Shown in pieces: positions 7,432 to 57,926 of a stretch of DNA of 64,000 nucleotides (the stretch's first letter is position 1; each line of letters starts with the position of its first letter). Made by a program: the position numbers and the translations under genes. The notes beneath the pieces were generated by a model. The model was not told the origin of the DNA, ran no database searches, and was given only the letters and a program-made list of their open reading frames with translations. The stretch is from an uncultured Methanosarcinales archaeon (GTDB taxonomy: Archaea; Nanobdellota; Nanobdellia; Woesearchaeales; JAGVZT01): positions 71,058 to 135,057 of the forward strand of contig CAYHAM010000002.1 of the NCBI GenBank assembly GCA_964354685.1, in the 5' to 3' direction.

Positions 7432-7488
7432 TTTATCACTCTAAAATCCTCAAAAACTAATTTAAACTACTTATATTTAAACAGTAAT

Positions 7489-8406
7489 ATGGGGGTTAGT
7501 ACAGAGCTAAAAGAGTGGGTTAACAAGGGATTAAAAAAAGGCTACTCAAAGGACAAGCTTAGACAGGAGCTTACAAAGGCAGGTTATTCTGATAAGGACA
7601 TAACTTCTGCTTTAAAGGAAACAGGATCTAGCCCAAAGCGTAATCCTCTAGTTATTGGTATTGTTTTGATTGCAGTTATTATTGGATCTATTTACTTGTT
7701 TAATGCATTGCAGACAAAGGTCATTGTTCTTGAGGCTGAAAAGGACTTTAATTTGGGAGAGTGGGTGAGGGTAGAGCCGGAAGGCGACTATGTTGTTATA
7801 AACAACGAGACTGAAATTTGGAGTAGACCTTTCAACCTAAAAAAACTTTCCAATTTTCGCGAAGCACAAAAAATAAATGTCAGGGTTATTGCCAAAGGCG
7901 GTGAGGGGGAGGAGGAAAACCTGATTCTCATTTTAGAGGTTGTTAATCAGAGCCATTATGGAAATTTTGAGAACTCAACAATTTATCCTTCAATAGTCAC
8001 TGTCATTTCAGACGTAAGCGGCAATAAGACAATAGAGACCCGCTTCTCTGGCAAATATTTGAACGGAGTGATGAATGACAAATTGGTTCAGAAAAAAGGC
8101 ACTTTTGATACGTCCAACGCAGTCTTTATGAATAGCAGATTCCAAGATATGGTTATCGAGGGCAACAAAACAATCTTTTATTACAGAAAGGATAAATGGC
8201 CTGTGCTTTCTGTTGTCTTTGGAGAGGACCTCAACAACTGGAAGTTGCTGGAGATATCCTCAACAGAGTGGCAAAGTTTTCTGATTCAGTTTGACATGAA
8301 TAGGTTTTCAGACTTTGAAAATGCGGAATTAATATTCGAGTTAAGCACAGACACTTTAAACCCTATACCTACATACATTGATAAAGTTTATGTCACTTTA
8401 GAATAA
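7489..8406 (+). CDS. N-terminally anchored membrane/surface protein, paralog A (short cytoplasmic N-domain, one TM, ~230-aa external domain)
   Basis: MGVSTELKEWVNKGLKKGYSKDKLRQELTKAGYSDKDITSALKETGSSPKRNPLVIGIVLIAVIIGSIYLF...; first ~80 codons nearly identical at DNA level to 8756.. paralog. Confidence 0.6.
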   Translation: MGVSTELKEWVNKGLKKGYSKDKLRQELTKAGYSDKDITSALKETGSSPKRNPLVIGIVLIAVIIGSIYLFNALQTKVIVLEAEKDFNLGEWVRVEPEGDYVVINNETEIWSRPFNLKKLSNFREAQKINVRVIAKGGEGEEENLILILEVVNQSHYGNFENSTIYPSIVTVISDVSGNKTIETRFSGKYLNGVMNDKLVQKKGTFDTSNAVFMNSRFQDMVIEGNKTIFYYRKDKWPVLSVVFGEDLNNWKLLEISSTEWQSFLIQFDMNRFSDFENAELIFELSTDTLNPIPTYIDKVYVTLE

Positions 8407-8648: not shown

Positions 8649-8755
8649 CTTAACAATTCTTTATAGATTTCTAATATATAAAGTTTTTGTTTTTCTGTTT
8701 TATTATTCACAAATAGTCAAAAACTAATTTAAACTACTTATATTTAAGCAGTAAT

Positions 8756-9685
8756 ATGGGGGTTAGCAAAGAGCTAAAAGAGTGGGTTAACAAGGGATTA
8801 AAAAAAGGTTACTCAAAGGACAAGCTTAGGCAGGAGCTTACAAAGGTAGGTTATTCTGATAAGGACATAACTTCTGCTTTAAAGGAAACAGGATCTAGCC
8901 CAAAGCGTAATCCTCTAGTTATTGGTATTGTTTTGATTGCAGTTATTATTGGATCTATTTACTTGTTTAATGCATTGCAGACAAAGGGAATTGTGCTAGA
9001 GGCAGAGAAAGATTTTAAGTCTGGTGACTTTGGTGTGGAGTTCGAGCCCTTTACTGATTACATCAGACTCAGCAGTAATGGCTATATCACAACCGAATCT
9101 CTGAATCTTAAGGAACTTAAAAACTTTGAAAAAGCAGACAAGATCAATGTTGAATTTATTGCCAGAGGAGAAACAGGCAAGGCAGAAAACATAGTCTACA
9201 CATACGAGCTTCTTGATGGTGAGACATTTGACAATTTGGAGGATTCAATGAATTACTCAACCAGGATAACTTTGCTCTGTGATATAACTTGTGACAAGAC
9301 TCTTGAGAAAAGCCTGAGCGGACAATGGCTGAACAGAGTCATGAATGAGAGACTTAACCAGGAAGAAGACACATTTGACCAGGGTGAAATCTTTGTTTCA
9401 CACGCCAAGTTCAAGGACATAACTGTTGAAGGGAACAAAATGGTTATACGATATGAGAGGAGTATCTGGCCTGTTGTTTATGTATCAACCTGGTCCACAG
9501 AATGCTTCTCCTGCAAAAAGCCTGCTGCGGTGGAAATATCTTCACAGGAATGGGAAACCTACACTGTACAGTTTGATTTGGCTGACCCGAAATCAGATTA
9601 TTCCTACCTGGGTATAGAATTGTCAACTGATGAAGAAAACCCAAAGCCGGTCTACATAGACCAAGTAATTGTCAGCTTAAAATAA
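8756..9685 (+). CDS. N-terminally anchored membrane/surface protein, paralog B
   Basis: Same N-terminal 80 aa as paralog A; diverged C-terminal domain with 4 Cys (CDITCDKT...STECFSCKKP). Confidence 0.6.
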   Translation: MGVSKELKEWVNKGLKKGYSKDKLRQELTKVGYSDKDITSALKETGSSPKRNPLVIGIVLIAVIIGSIYLFNALQTKGIVLEAEKDFKSGDFGVEFEPFTDYIRLSSNGYITTESLNLKELKNFEKADKINVEFIARGETGKAENIVYTYELLDGETFDNLEDSMNYSTRITLLCDITCDKTLEKSLSGQWLNRVMNERLNQEEDTFDQGEIFVSHAKFKDITVEGNKMVIRYERSIWPVVYVSTWSTECFSCKKPAAVEISSQEWETYTVQFDLADPKSDYSYLGIELSTDEENPKPVYIDQVIVSLK

Positions 9686-20737: not shown

Positions 20738-21228
20738 CTATTATTACAAATCCAAGACAAACAGTTCTTGTAACATGCAGAAGTCAAGTTAAGGTTTTAA
20801 ACAAGGAGATAGTAAAAGACAACATAATAACACTAGATTGGCACATGCCAACAAGCTTTAAACCTGAGATATATGCAATCTCTGTTGGCAAAACAAGATT
20901 TTCTATGGAACTAATAAGAAAGTCAAAGGTATTTGTTGTTAATTTTATGCCATACTCATTCAAAGATGCTGTTCTAAGGTGCGGCAGAGTCTCAGGAAAG
21001 CATGTTGACAAGTTTGAGGATACAGGGCTAACAAAAGTAGAAACAGAAAAACTGGATTGCCCAAGGATCAAGGAAGCAGTTGCCTGGCTTGAATGTGAGG
21101 TTATAGGCGAGCTGGAAACAGGTGACCACATCATCTTCATAGGTAAAGTTGTCAACTCTGAGCTCATGAAAAAAGAGAAGAGAGTATTCCATCTTGATGG
21201 AGATAACTTTACCACAACTCTAGATTAA
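20734..21228 (+). CDS. Flavin reductase-like (FMN-binding split-barrel) domain protein
   Basis: LVTCRS..NIITLDWHMP..EIYAISVGKTRFSMELIRKSKVFVVNF..RCGRVSGKHVDKFEDTGL..AVAWLECEVIGELETGDHIIFIGKVVN pattern of PF01613-type proteins. Confidence 0.65.
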   Translation: MTIITNPRQTVLVTCRSQVKVLNKEIVKDNIITLDWHMPTSFKPEIYAISVGKTRFSMELIRKSKVFVVNFMPYSFKDAVLRCGRVSGKHVDKFEDTGLTKVETEKLDCPRIKEAVAWLECEVIGELETGDHIIFIGKVVNSELMKKEKRVFHLDGDNFTTTLD

Positions 21229-21242
21229 AAAGAGGTGATAAG

Positions 21243-54753: not shown

Positions 54754-55365
54754 TTAATTTTGGTCATTTATCCCAACCAAACTATCAAAACTCTTCAAAA
54801 CAGAAAACTTAATCTCAGGATGTTTTTTCTCCAATTTGTTTAACATTTCTCTTATATCCTTATTGTAAGGCTTTGATTTTTTGTATTTGAATCCCTTTAT
54901 TTTTGCAAAGATCTCTATCTCTTTATCTGACACATTCCTCAAAAGTTTTATTCTCAATGGCTTCTTTGGTTTTTCAAACTCAAGCTTGCCAAACATCTTG
55001 CTCAGAAAATACTCAACCTCATCCTCAAGACTCCATGGCAAAACAATTTTATTAACAGCATCTGTTTTTACAATTGTTTTTAGCTTTTTCTCACTAATGT
55101 TAAATCTATTTTCAACCTCAAAAACAAGAAATGTAACAGGCAAGTGCTTCAAAATACTTCTTAACAAGTATTGGCTAACAAGGCTCTCCTTTGTTTTATC
55201 ATTCAATATCAAGATGTGATCCTTTCTTGAAAAGAGCTTTCTTAGCCTTACCTCCTTTCTAACCCTTTTCTCTATAAGCTTTAGAAAGCAGCCATCACAA
55301 AGCCTGCCTGGGACATGACCCAGTCTGATGCTTGCAGCCTTTTTCTTACATTTAAAACAATTCAT
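54754..55365 (-). CDS. Zn-ribbon protein resembling the N-terminus of Ncs6/TtuA tRNA-thiolation enzymes but with a degenerate PP-loop (Ncs2/Ctu2-like?)
   Basis: MNCFKCKKKAASIRLGHVPGRLCDGCF...VRKEV...HILILNDKTKESLVS where SGGKDS would be expected. Confidence 0.35.
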   Translation of the reverse strand: MNCFKCKKKAASIRLGHVPGRLCDGCFLKLIEKRVRKEVRLRKLFSRKDHILILNDKTKESLVSQYLLRSILKHLPVTFLVFEVENRFNISEKKLKTIVKTDAVNKIVLPWSLEDEVEYFLSKMFGKLEFEKPKKPLRIKLLRNVSDKEIEIFAKIKGFKYKKSKPYNKDIREMLNKLEKKHPEIKFSVLKSFDSLVGINDQN

Positions 55366-55520
55366 GGTTTTTATATATAAAAGCCCACATGTTAAAGGTA
55401 TGTTACCACTCTACAACACTCAAAAACGAAAAGTATTTATATAAGTTATATCTACTAACAAGTAGAAATTAAAAATTTCATTTCAAAGTAACAATGGATT
55501 AAGGGGGTGGTTCGTTTCTC

Positions 55521-55660
55521 AGCCCGTTTATAATCTATCACCTCTTTTTCCTGGGAAAAACTCTTCGGAGTTTTTCCTGGGTTTTAAATCCTGATCACCT
55601 CTTTTTCCCGCGAAGGTTCTCAGCAATGGGAACCTTCAAGGGTTTTAAACAAAATTCTAT
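55521..55660 (+). repeat. Tandem hairpin modules: 2 x [ATCACCTCTTTTTCC + self-complementary 29/33-nt insert + GTTTTAAA]; CRISPR-like in layout but more likely tandem terminator-like/structured RNA units
   Basis: Insert 1 tgggaaaaactc-TTCG-gagtttttcctgg (10-bp stem, UUCG loop); insert 2 aaggttc-tcagcaatgg-gaacctt; flanking 28-mer GTTTTAAATCCTGATCACCTCTTTTTCC present once intact and twice degenerate. Confidence 0.5.
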
Positions 55661-55737
55661 GAATCTCTTTTTTTTGTACAATCTTTAAAAGGATTCAATT
55701 ATGCTAAGTTTTTCAATTATTATAATATATATTCTCA

Positions 55738-55906
55738 AGAAAAAATCCAGCCAACCATGGCTTCGACGGCCAACTTTTCTCCTTTATACAAAACGAGATT
55801 GTCGAAAAGCTTGTCCTATTCCACAAAATTTGCTTCAGGCTTTTATTCTCAGATTAACTAAGCCTTTGCAAATTTTGCTCCATCTCGCCATGGCTGGATT
55901 TTTTAT
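55738..55906 (+). ncRNA. Long hairpin element unit 1 (~169 nt; arms aaaaaatccagccaaccatggc / gccatggctggatttttt)
   Basis: Terminal inverted repeat seen directly; paralogous to the adjacent unit 2; in an 800-bp gene-free region. Confidence 0.4.
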
Positions 55907-55914
55907 TAAATGAG

Positions 55915-56081
55915 GCAACAACAATGGCGGTCGGCGAGCCGGGGGTTGTCCCTTACGGGGCACTTGGAAACACGGAGTGTTTCCGGTGTGCTCAGAAATC
56001 TCCGATTTCTGACATGGCGAGTAGGACAAATCGTAGCGAAGCGAAGATTTGGCCGTCGACCCGCCATTATTGTTGTTGCCG
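55915..56081 (+). ncRNA. Long hairpin element unit 2 (~167 nt, GC-rich; arms ggcaacaacaatggcggtcggcgagcc / ggccgtcgacccgccattattgttgttgcc)
   Basis: ~28-bp imperfect closing stem; internal hairpins ggaaacac-gga-gtgtttcc and cagaaatc-tcc-gatttctg. Confidence 0.4.
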
Positions 56082-56165
56082 AATTAATCTTTAGTTTATA
56101 TTATTTAATCATCAACACAAGAATAAGCTAAATCATCGCGAATATTATTAATAATCAAATAAAAT

Positions 56166-57926
56166 CTAACCAAACAGCTCATTTACCAACTCAATATACA
56201 TTGCCAAGCTCCATGCTTGACTCAAGCAACCCCTGCTCTCTTGCCTAAAGGCTGAGCTCACCTCTGCATGATTAGCAATAGCACCCATCCAAAGAATCTC
56301 TTTTGTTGATGCCTCTAATATTCTATCAATATACTTCTTAAAATAATCTCTGTCTAACCTAAACATACAAATAGCTGCCAAATTGTTAATCCAATACCAA
56401 GAATCACCTCTATGATAACTTATGTTATCCTCGCCAGTGTGCTTTGGCTTAAACAGAGGATTATTCCTATCAATTGTTGTTAATCCACCCCACTCAAGCC
56501 AGAGCTTTTGCAATGCATTATCAAAGCATTTCTTCCACTCATCTTCTGCAAGCAATTCAGGATAAACATAGTATGCAATAAATACATTTGGTCTTATGGT
56601 AAAATCATGCAAACCATCTGCAAGCATATCTCCATTCCAAAAACCAACCTTAACCCTCTCCTTAAGGCTTTTAGCCAAATCAATAAACTGTTCTTGGTTA
56701 GAGAATTGATAAACAAACTTGTACAAAGCAAGCTGCAAAGCCTGTATTTCTATCCTTGCACCATCTCTCCTGTCTTGGCCATTAACCATTGTGTCCATCC
56801 AAGTCTCTTTCTGGTTGTTGTAAACCAAATTATCTCTAATATAGTGTTGTAAAGTCTTATCCAAAATATATTCTAGCTTTGCCTTTAGAAATGTTAGCTC
56901 TACCTTGTCTATCTTTTTTAGATTGTAAAGTTGAGAAAGCCTGTACAAACACCAACCAGTTGTATCAGCAGATTCCAAATTTTCATGGTGTAAATTGGAA
57001 ATACGGTTTGGAAGCCTTCCATTTTGTTGAACATTATTCAGCTCTTTCAAGAGTATCTCCTTTGCCTCATCATAGCGCTTTTGTTTTATCAAAGCACCAA
57101 CTGCTATAGCCTCATCCCTTGTCCAGAACTGGAAAAACCAAGGCAAGCCTGCAAATATCCGATCATTCACAATCAAATTATCCAGGGCTATTAAAGCAGA
57201 GTTATAAGCAAGATTTATTTCGTCATCTTTTGATATCTTCTTTGTTTTGAGCTTTTTTGGTTTATATTTCTTGAATAGCTCCTCTGCTTCTGTTTCAGCC
57301 TCAACAGTGTCTTTTGAAGCTGCTATCACTATTTTTTTTGCGTCAATACTCAAAGCCTGCAAAACATACCTTGCAAAAGGAAAAGAATTACGCTCTTTAT
57401 CAGATAAATAATCTACCTTAATCCAATTATTCAATATGTTATGATTACCATCATGCCTTATAACAATAAAGAATCTAAACTCGTTCACCTCATGGCTTTG
57501 GTCTTCTCTTGAGTCTGTTTTTTTTGTGAATTCTATGATCACCTCATTACCATCAGCAGTTATCTCATAATACCTCCCCCATTCTCTTAAATCATAACTC
57601 TTCCTCACATCAAGGTTTAGACTTATTGGTCGGTTTGGTTGTAGTATTATGCAACTCTTTTTTTCTGGCAAGGTTATTTTTGTTCCATTCAACTCAACAC
57701 AATCAAAATTATTGACAACACTATCAAAACCAAATCCAAAAGAATCAATAATCTTGTACATCTCCAACTCTTTTTTATCAAAAACAAAAAACCCGTCATA
57801 CCTTGAAGGATTAGCAGAAGAAAGCATCAGATAAGAGCCATCACTATTTGTCAATAAAGCTCTAACATCTCCCTGCACCTCTTTTTTCAAGGCTTTTCTA
57901 TCAAGCCTATGCTCCACCCCAACCAT
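56166..57926 (-). CDS. Amylo-alpha-1,6-glucosidase / glycogen debranching enzyme family ((alpha/alpha)6 barrel, GDE_C)
   Basis: GLPWFFQFWTRDEAIAVGAL parallels the GYPWF..WGRDT signature; ~590 aa. Confidence 0.7.
   Translation of the reverse strand: MVGVEHRLDRKALKKEVQGDVRALLTNSDGSYLMLSSANPSRYDGFFVFDKKELEMYKIIDSFGFGFDSVVNNFDCVELNGTKITLPEKKSCIILQPNRPISLNLDVRKSYDLREWGRYYEITADGNEVIIEFTKKTDSREDQSHEVNEFRFFIVIRHDGNHNILNNWIKVDYLSDKERNSFPFARYVLQALSIDAKKIVIAASKDTVEAETEAEELFKKYKPKKLKTKKISKDDEINLAYNSALIALDNLIVNDRIFAGLPWFFQFWTRDEAIAVGALIKQKRYDEAKEILLKELNNVQQNGRLPNRISNLHHENLESADTTGWCLYRLSQLYNLKKIDKVELTFLKAKLEYILDKTLQHYIRDNLVYNNQKETWMDTMVNGQDRRDGARIEIQALQLALYKFVYQFSNQEQFIDLAKSLKERVKVGFWNGDMLADGLHDFTIRPNVFIAYYVYPELLAEDEWKKCFDNALQKLWLEWGGLTTIDRNNPLFKPKHTGEDNISYHRGDSWYWINNLAAICMFRLDRDYFKKYIDRILEASTKEILWMGAIANHAEVSSAFRQESRGCLSQAWSLAMYIELVNELFG

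Follow-up and report, generated by a model that had tools for sequence, protein, structure and literature searches.

The 64-kb stretch of contig CAYHAM010000002.1 analyzed here (the window, 64,000 nucleotides with a GC content of 35.5%) raises a simple question: what occupies the 800-bp gap at 55366–56165, between the gene of a 203-amino acid (aa) protein (54754–55365, − strand) and the 3′ end of a GDE_C gene (− strand)? An initial annotation had singled out this gap as unusually long and noncoding, and it is indeed the longest gap between open reading frames (ORFs) within the window. We found that it is made up of two unrelated parts, Part A (55,427–55,646, + strand) and Part B (55,740–56,082). 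With a probability of roughly 0.55, we read Part A as a conserved small-RNA gene of Woesearchaeota, whose product would mask Shine–Dalgarno (SD) sequences, and Part B as two structured elements. Part A, not the long hairpins, is the more interesting half of the gap. Judged by their sequences, the window proteins place this DNA among the DPANN archaea: for the glycogen-debranching-type (GDE) gene (56166–57926), the best homologues with a name come from Candidatus Woesearchaeota and Nanoarchaeota, and the related loci that we found by DNA pattern likewise stem from metagenome-assembled genomes of Woesearchaeota.

Part A is built from a module that consists of (U)AUCACCUCUUUUUCC, a hairpin and GGGUUU(U). 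The sequence ATCACCTCTTTTTCC occurs exactly twice in the window, at 55537 and 55594 (0.29 occurrences are expected even with 2 mismatches), and both copies precede a strong hairpin, which is followed by GGGTTTTAAA. The two units with self-complementary inserts, one of them with a UUCG loop, had been recognized in the initial annotation and were found as described. The modules also lie within the extent given there (55521–55660), but the conserved stretch begins farther to the left, at about 55400, and includes a promoter and a leader. The features of Part A are as follows.

55402–55411, + strand: upstream box GTTACCACTC (consensus TTACTACTC), kept in 8 of the 9 aligned loci.
55427–55443, + strand: archaeal promoter, with a B recognition element (BRE)-like CGAAAAGTA followed by the TATA box TTTATATA, recognized by conservation across loci.
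55451–55466, + strand: palindrome TCTACT-N4-AGTAGA at the predicted transcription start, seen in the aligned loci.
55503–55511, + strand: SD-like GGGGGUGGU in the leader, a possible pairing partner of AUCACCUC(U) in module 1 or of the 16S rRNA anti-SD.
55537–55585, + strand: module 1, with the invariant unpaired AUCACCUCUUUUUCC, a 14-bp hairpin with a UUCG loop (55550–55581) and a U4 tract.
55594–55646, + strand: module 2, with AUCACCUCUUUUUCC, a hairpin (55607–55642) and a U4 tract.

Across loci, the motif AUCACCUCUUUUUCC is invariant and predicted to be unpaired, and the hairpin varies. In an alignment of 13 host modules, 93% of the cells were paired and compensatory changes were observed at 11 of the 14 pairs; none of 500 shuffles reached the covariation score, and slid controls gave 31–56%. 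When host and viral modules were taken together (17 sequences), 95.8% of the cells were paired, with 65 double-change cells and again 0/500 shuffles. Many U–G pairs in the module hairpins are compatible with the + strand only. Module 1 scored 71 bits (E 5e-14) against R2, the covariance model of the module; it is identical in contig L002, and in L029 the upper stem differs yet the hairpin still forms. R2 found the module nowhere but at this locus in each contig examined. No reading frame of Part A is conserved between loci on either strand. The short ORFs on the opposite strand change frame or lose their start codon from locus to locus, indicating that Part A is not coding; an SD followed by a small ORF on the − strand was considered and rejected, because neither start codons nor frames are conserved. 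Part A matched no Rfam family at gathering or permissive thresholds. On these comparative grounds, Part A is a conserved small-RNA gene.

It also has the appearance of an independent transcription unit, with its own promoter, 3′ ends formed by a hairpin and a U tract, and no conserved ORF; no gene lies upstream on the + strand at the host locus. The elements follow one another in the same order across the aligned loci: the TTACTACTC box, the BRE/TATA promoter (CGAAAnnTTTAWATA), the palindrome, GGGGUGGU and, after a variable 20–110 nt, 1–3 modules. The promoter sequence CGAAA(G/A)nnTTTAWATA was present in 8 of the 9 aligned loci, and L029 has ACAAAAAGTATTTATATG instead. A purine-rich BRE stands 5′ of the TATA box in archaeal promoters and so gives their direction; its position on the 5′ side therefore assigns the + orientation to the Part A promoter, and transcription probably starts at about 55465. 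The palindrome at this point is conserved across the aligned loci as CTACTC-N4-GAGTAG with a variable centre, and could be either an operator or a 5′ hairpin. The upstream box, a putative transcription-factor site, shares the core CTACTC with it. Farther downstream, the leader sequence GGGGTGGT was observed in the window, L002, L004, L007, L014, L018, L021 and L023, whereas L029 carries an altered form and L005 none; in L007–L023 the search pattern demanded it.

The Part A locus occurs in at least nine other Woesearchaeota-type contigs (L002, L004, L005, L007, L014, L018, L021, L023 and L029), with 1–3 modules in each. L007, L014, L018, L021 and L023 were added by a scan of genome contigs for GGGGTGGT-N-ATCACCTCTTTTT, which gave 22 matches, about 14 of them chance matches in bacteria. 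Conservation is higher upstream of the 203-aa gene than in its product: in L002, 55400–55660 has hardly changed, against 79% identity for the protein, and homology with the window ends at about 55665. Identity of the protein falls to 57% in L004 and 44% in L005, both of which carry Part A. The spacing of the modules also differs among the loci. In L002 (173–343, − strand), 49 nt are inserted between module 1 and module 2 (window 55585–55594) and form a third, different hairpin unit (AAAAATTCCACATGGAATTTTT + CCTCAAATCAAGATTTGGGGTTTT) without the ATCACCTC motif. In L018 (7005–7110, + strand), the modules stand about 110 nt apart, with unrelated sequence between them, compared with about 10 nt in the window.

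The module is not confined to hosts. It was detected in at least 11 viral contigs of IMG/VR and confirmed by R2 at 25–60 bits. In four of them (L096, L101, L102 and L106/L107), it is located between the large-terminase gene and the portal or portal-MuF gene, and the viral contigs with the AUCACCUCUUUUUCC-hairpin at this position have a GC content of 33–39%. In L096, L101 and L106/L107, three to four viral copies, a TATA box lies 22–25 nt upstream of UAUCACCUC, and the predicted viral RNA would be about 60 nt long, with one module and the invariant motif at its 5′ end. The portal-MuF protein of L102 has C-terminal Hint/intein matches. We know of no small RNA (sRNA) shared between virus and host in DPANN archaea, and the AUCACCUCUUUUUCC-hairpin module could serve to mark uncultured viruses as Woesearchaeota-linked. 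That the 15-nt motif remains invariant from host to virus while the hairpin changes freely suggests an interaction with something highly conserved.

The identity of the motif with the 3′ tail of 16S rRNA points to translation initiation. The first 8 nt of AUCACCUCUUUUUCC equal the archaeal 16S anti-SD tail, as found in archaeal 16S rRNA generally, and AUCACCUC is the anti-SD core of this tail. ATCACCTC equals this archaeal tail, a resemblance already remarked upon in the initial annotation, and is probably the functional core of Part A. In the window, leaderless genes are numerous, with a TATA box about 25–30 nt ahead of the ATG, and other genes are SD-led, with SDs of the GAGGTGA/GGGGTGA type. 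The complement of AUCACCUC is the type of SD used there, for example AAAAAGAGGTGATAAGGTG at 21228; one match of the motif to the window is 14 nt long (21226–21239, AAAAAGAGGUGAUA). In the mechanism that we propose, the BRE/TATA promoter would give rise to a + strand transcript of about 120–180 nt, consisting of a leader with the SD-like GGGGGUGGU and two tandem modules. The exposed AUCACCUCUUUUUCC would pair with the SD regions (GGAAAAAGAGGUGAU-like) of SD-led mRNAs and hide the SD from the 30S subunit, and the U tract and hairpin would confer stability and possibly provide a candidate Lsm/SmAP site. Tailed viruses would presumably employ the same activity through the one-module version of about 60 nt. 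By analogy, the order of seed, U-rich site and terminator-like hairpin is that of a classical trans-acting sRNA. We infer that the Part A RNA acts in trans, its anti-SD seed masking ribosome-binding sites (RBSs), and we take this as the most likely function on account of the complementarity to the window SDs, the sRNA-like layout and the Methanosarcina mazei precedents considered at the end of this text.

The gene next to Part A bears on one alternative to this proposal.

54754–55365, − strand: degenerate NcsA/TtuA-like gene (203 aa), recognized by a profile match to U34 tRNA thiolases.

The 203-aa protein has no Pfam match. A profile of its homologues matched PDB entries 6scy/3vrh/5mko (U34 tRNA thiolase, NcsA/TtuA, [4Fe-4S]-dependent) with an E value of about 1e-16, with a match restricted to the zinc-ribbon region at the N terminus and a segment at the C terminus. 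The protein has retained the CxxC..CxxC zinc ribbon at its N terminus, but its PP-loop SGGKDS has been replaced (DDKSKE-like), the middle of the enzyme is missing, and scores against the NCBIfam NcsA/TtuA models are far under the cut-offs, indicating a degenerate and probably non-catalytic relative of a tRNA-binding enzyme. The family (P0001–P0013, about 180–208 aa) comprises only 13 homologues among 5.8 billion clusters; by analogy with Ncs2/Ctu2, it may be a non-catalytic RNA-binding partner. The gene is divergent from Part A wherever the flank is available (the window, L002, L004, L005, L007, L018, L021, L023 and L029), and this conserved divergence suggests co-regulation or partnership with the RNA gene. 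In most loci, a CTACTC-containing box is found on both sides of the BRE/TATA promoter of Part A (55402–55411 and 55451–55466), and these boxes are a candidate operator common to the RNA gene and the NcsA-like gene. A TATA-like TTTTATATATAAAA is located at 55370–55385, only about 8–20 nt from the ATG of the NcsA-like gene. This is too close for a leaderless start, so that the promoter of the NcsA-like gene may be the shared 55436–55443 or another site.

Several observations weigh against SD masking. An anti-SD seed would match every SD, and the SD matches in the window include no specific conserved target; moreover, the 15–17 invariant nt exceed the need of SD pairing, and a protein or ribosome ligand fits them at least as well. 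The pairing of GGGGUGGU with AUCACCUC shows no covariation and is missing in L005, and pairing of the leader GGGGGUGGU is therefore counted as unproven. These points leave room for the modules to be decoys of the 16S 3′ tail (...AUCACCUCC-3′) that titrate a putative tail-recognizing factor. Candidates would be a factor of 30S maturation or initiation, or else the degenerate RNA-binding protein of NcsA/TtuA type encoded next to Part A. Such a sponge for a 16S-tail-binding factor fits almost as well as SD masking: it agrees with the invariance of 15–17 nt in hosts and viruses where all else drifts, with a tandem module number that ranges from 1 to 3 and with the conserved linkage to a gene whose product is related to a tRNA-binding enzyme but catalytically degenerate. 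The viral copies, however, lack a companion NcsA-like gene, and past CCUC the motif departs from the canonical tail (UUUUU, not CU), so that we regard the decoy as doubtful. A cis role was also considered, in which the modules would act as 3′-end elements or terminators preceded by a conserved box, and a short unstable transcript would come from the host locus. Each module does combine a GC-rich hairpin with a U tract, a terminator scan flagged module 1, and in two viral contigs, L097 and L105, the module adjoins or runs into the end of the ORF before it, with no promoter of its own apparent, an arrangement that tells against an sRNA there and for which the cis role was kept as a rival. It nevertheless seems rather improbable, because there is one module locus per contig, none of the other gene ends of the window carries a module (64 kb, about 55 genes), a strong promoter is conserved at the host locus and no gene precedes it on the same strand, the invariant 15-mer has no known role in termination, and archaeal termination needs no hairpin.

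The initial annotation had further compared GTTTTAAATCCTGATCACCTCTTTTTCC with a clustered regularly interspaced short palindromic repeat (CRISPR) and allowed for the decayed remnant of a CRISPR array or of an rRNA operon or rRNA-processing region. The length of GTTTTAAATCCTGATCACCTCTTTTTCC is repeat-like and ATCACCTC equals the 16S tail, but little else agrees with either origin, and we consider both extremely improbable. Only two copies are present, whereas a CRISPR array requires at least three direct repeats of 23–47 nt; the supposed spacers are self-complementary hairpins that covary across species, and the module is single-copy in viruses. Part A has its own conserved promoter, and ATCACCTC thus lies within an independently promoted conserved unit. 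Rfam 15, whose families include 5S rRNA, SRP RNA, RNase P RNA, C/D and H/ACA sRNAs and Hgc RNAs, was scanned with the whole window at gathering thresholds and with the region and each unit of Part B at permissive thresholds. At gathering thresholds, the window contained no rRNA, and only two tRNAs were detected; no CRISPR-DR family came above threshold, the only listing being a chance-level 14-bit match inside unit 1 of Part B. No cas domains were found among the 16 window proteins scanned. The permissive scans gave matches of ≤21 bits only, far under the gathering scores, and the Rfam/Infernal comparison that the initial annotation had called for thus assigned no family to the region or its units.

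SD masking by the Part A RNA can be extended to a broader picture, which as a whole is tentative and rather unlikely to hold in every element. Part A would then be an undescribed RNA family of DPANN archaea and tailed viruses, a free-standing anti-SD mimic that competes with ribosomes for SDs and shifts the balance between SD-led and leaderless translation. The host would control it through a regulated promoter and an SD-like anti-seed in the leader, viruses would carry it as a take-over tool between terminase and portal, and Part B would represent another new RNA family, made up of structured RNAs that come in pairs. If SD masking holds, it would offer a simple way of switching modes to hosts that mix leaderless and SD-led mRNAs, and to viruses.

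What, then, is the remainder of the gap? Part B and the spacer ahead of it comprise the following features.

55666–55739, no strand assigned: AT-rich spacer, beginning where the homology with L002 ends (about 55665).
55740–55903, − strand favoured: unit 1, a structured element of about 164 nt, recognized by its fold, homologues and strand asymmetry.
55904–55913, no strand assigned: central 10-nt spacer between the units, which together with the adjacent T-run forms TTTTTTATTAAAT.
55914–56082, + strand favoured: unit 2, a structured element of about 169 nt, recognized by its fold and strand asymmetry.

Both units fold far better than shuffled sequences on both strands (z −5.5 to −6.6; −5.6 to −6.6 for unit 1 and about −6.1 for unit 2). 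Unit 1 is closed by the stem AAAAAUCCAGCCA/UGGCUGGAUUUUU plus UGGC/GCCA, followed by a GAUGG/CCGUC helix, and its interior contains a long hairpin with a variable tip, the conserved single strand GGAAUAGGACA and a second hairpin. Unit 2 is closed by GGCAACAACAAUGGCGG/CCGCCAU-UAU-UGUUGUUGCC and contains a multi-helix junction with several internal hairpins and the conserved single strand GAGUAGGACAA. The terminal inverted repeats are 17 nt at 94% in unit 1 and 17 + 15 nt at 88–93% in unit 2, and with them the units extend over about 55737–55907 and about 55914–56082. Unit 1 forms 57 pairs (4 G–U) at −57.9 kcal/mol on the − strand and 53 pairs (2 G–U) at −48.8 kcal/mol on the + strand; unit 2 forms 63 pairs (9 G–U) at −81.7 kcal/mol on the + strand and 58 pairs (1 G–U) at −70.2 kcal/mol on the − strand. 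The GC-rich interiors that had been attributed to both units apply to unit 2 (about 52–56% GC) but not to unit 1 (about 40%). A TATA-like ATTATAATATATAT (55717–55732) lies in the AT-rich spacer and has a conserved counterpart ahead of the solo unit 1 of L031, and TTTTTTATTAAAT is possibly a bidirectional TATA box. By-eye resemblances of the units to 5S rRNA, SRP RNA and RNase P (CCUAUUCC; GAGUAGGACAA; a GGAG loop) were not supported by the Rfam models, and a census of hairpins in the window revealed no further long-hairpin elements.

The initial annotation had described two paralogous units of about 168 nt. Two units with inverted-repeat closure are indeed present, but direct paralogy was not observed; instead, the units show a weak inverted similarity. 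Unit 1 on the − strand and unit 2 on the + strand have in common UGGCG.., GARUAGGACAA and UUGGCCGUCGA, and the favoured strands agree with the orientation of these shared motifs. Local alignment of unit 1 (+) with unit 2 (−) gave a z of about 3, and R1, a covariance model built from the unit 1 trio described below, matched unit 2 over its whole length with 11.4 bits (E about 1). We consider it plausible that the units are homologous, as distant paralogues arranged head to head. The cross-unit complementarity reported earlier is real (55763–55779 with 56043–56059, and 55811–55821 with 56019–56029), and TCGACGGCCAA occurs at only two sites in the window, one per unit and in opposite orientation. 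The inverted homology of the units explains this complementarity as a by-product, without the proposed pseudoknot.

A search of metagenomes with the motif common to both units (241 million records) gave only two true matches, both full-length homologues of unit 1, in L030 (83% identical) and L031 (93%). In L030, a solo unit 1 is located between a PCMT gene and a gene for a PIN-domain protein (PIN_9/Fcf1-like nuclease, L030:653–1042, − strand); in L031, it is located between an Fe-S protein gene and a gene for a zinc-ribbon + AbrB/SpoVT-like (antitoxin-type) protein (L031:4766–5071, + strand). Divergence among the three sequences is concentrated in two loop regions. The inner hairpin has two compensatory pairs, and one G-to-A change (C–G to U–G) keeps pairing on the − strand only. 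The copies counted amount to 2 units in 64 kb and 2 copies of unit 1 in one metagenome. Viral contigs, GenBank phages and plasmids yielded nothing, or chance matches that failed the covariance model. No target-site duplication was found at the flanks of the three unit 1 copies, where A/T runs make short duplications hard to exclude. For unit 2, the sole homologue of its 73-aa ORF among 1.84 billion representatives is P0134 (E 3e-13), a 117-aa ORF that reads through unit 1-like and then unit 2-like sequence and whose 3′ part can be aligned with the window only if the frame is shifted; the head-to-head pair thus exists in a second organism. Part B is absent at this position in relatives, namely after Part A in L002 and 3′ of GDE in L004, L028 and L029. 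In the latter three contigs, the GDE and NcsA-like genes converge and the elements of Part B are missing, which indicates that the window is rearranged and that Part B lies at the junction. Part B is confined to a narrow lineage and stands at a synteny break. In L004, the spacer between the NcsA-like and GDE genes (774–986) has inverted repeats of its own (CCTTAAG...CTTAAGG, the hairpin GTGAGCGAAT...ATTCGCATTCAC, and GCGATTTGC...GCAAATCG), which bear no visible relation to units 1 and 2.

In the most likely reading, the units are structured RNAs of some stability; this ranks slightly above palindromic elements of the MITE (miniature inverted-repeat transposable element) or ERIC type. The proposal of a cluster of noncoding RNAs in the initial annotation gains support from both halves of the gap, namely from the strong covariation in Part A and from the compensatory changes and G–U strand asymmetry of unit 1. 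Against structured RNAs, it must be noted that a G-rich strand folds better in any case, so that the strand assignment of unit 2 is less secure, that the homology between the units is statistically weak, and that the evidence for unit 1 comprises three sequences and that for unit 2 a single homologue, deduced from protein. In addition, the closing stems on the favoured strands start about 10 nt apart and leave no room for properly placed promoters, so that the RNAs would be cut from longer precursors or the terminal repeats would act in DNA. A bulge-helix-bulge processing motif in the closing stems was considered and rejected, since the bulges are at odds with it. Non-autonomous mobile or repetitive palindromic elements (MITE, ERIC/YPAL/Correia) inserted between Part A and GDE, with an RNA structure that is incidental or stabilizes read-through transcripts, would account for the terminal inverted repeats flanked by A/T runs, the three unrelated contexts of unit 1, the two copies in inverted orientation, and the missing units at the corresponding position in L002, L004, L028 and L029 with the synteny breakpoint. 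Such an origin is possible, though we do not favour it: target-site duplications were not seen, the terminal repeats of the two units are unrelated while internal motifs are shared, and the divergence in loops, compensatory stem changes and G–U asymmetry are signs of selection at the RNA level. The rarity of the element in metagenomes, its absence from the viral, phage and plasmid collections and the retention of the unit 1–unit 2 pair in a second organism argue in the same direction. It is highly improbable that the small ORFs of Part B (70, 73, 56, 64 and 53 aa) encode real proteins, and the earlier view of them as artefacts was borne out. The match of the 73-aa ORF to P0134 could be taken as a sign of coding, but the frameshift needed for its 3′ part is as expected for conserved DNA and not for protein. 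None of the five gap ORFs was found in a collection of 15 billion proteins, no further homologue was present among the 5.8 billion clusters, and the unit 1 ORF is broken by 2- and 3-nt indels in L031 and L030, with no ORF of ≥60 aa spanning the L031 unit. Part B represents a second unannotated structured element, and it marks a synteny breakpoint.

Elsewhere in the window, two adjacent genes on the + strand, 7489–8406 and 8756–9685, are preceded by 40-nt stretches that differ at only 2 positions (7449–7488 and 8716–8755, ..tcaaaaactaatttaaactacttatatttaa.cagtaatATG), which suggests a recent tandem duplication of gene and promoter together. A replication origin or ORB repeats were also considered for the gap and rejected, since no Orc1/Cdc6 gene lies nearby and the GC skew merely tracks gene strand. 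The covariance models R2 (module) and R1 (unit 1) could be applied to archaeal genomes and viromes to annotate the family.

Among known systems, Part B can be compared with the long palindromic intergenic elements, such as ERIC/IRU, YPAL and Correia repeats and archaeal MITEs. Like these, its units are imperfect palindromes in the range of ~125–170 bp that lie between genes in one orientation or the other, are found in some relatives but not in others, and form long hairpins as RNA. They differ in their very low copy number and in that no target-site duplication was seen; moreover, their terminal repeats differ between units, internal single-stranded motifs are conserved and stems show compensatory changes. 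The HgcC/E/F/G class comprises GC-rich structured noncoding RNAs of AT-rich archaea, and unit 2 resembles it as a GC-rich island (52–56%) in a 35% GC genome; however, no Rfam family, these included, reached E = 10 on either unit beyond chance-level matches.

For Part A, our literature searches on regulatory RNAs of DPANN archaea found no description, and the closest precedents come from M. mazei. Its sRNA41 and sRNA154 are trans-acting and carry anti-RBS sequences that mask the RBSs of their targets, including internal RBSs of polycistronic mRNAs (PMC5867862). Part A likewise exposes an anti-SD sequence in more than one copy. It has no similarity to these sRNAs in sequence or structure, and neither of them matches the locus in Rfam; in Part A, the anti-SD is a 15-nt invariant motif before a terminator-like hairpin and is repeated as a module, and this module is common to DPANN hosts and tailed viruses. 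Hfq-type sRNAs such as RybB and OmrA/B have a 5′ seed, a U-rich site and a Rho-independent terminator, and RsaE/RoxS are C-rich and SD-targeting. Part A corresponds to them in its predicted unpaired, candidate seed, U tract, GC hairpin and U tail, and the seed of the viral module lies within a few nt of the predicted 5′ end. Unlike them, Part A is archaeal, is preceded by a BRE/TATA promoter, would have Lsm/SmAP as its putative chaperone and has a seed that is the 16S tail itself. In CsrB, the ligand of which is CsrA, GGA motifs lie in hairpin loops. As in CsrB/RsmZ, the short invariant motif of Part A is tandemly repeated beside hairpins in numbers that vary by species, but it precedes the hairpin instead of lying in its loop. 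Thus, the kind of RNA, an anti-RBS or decoy sRNA, is known, whereas the Part A family, its modular form and its distribution over viruses and hosts are new.

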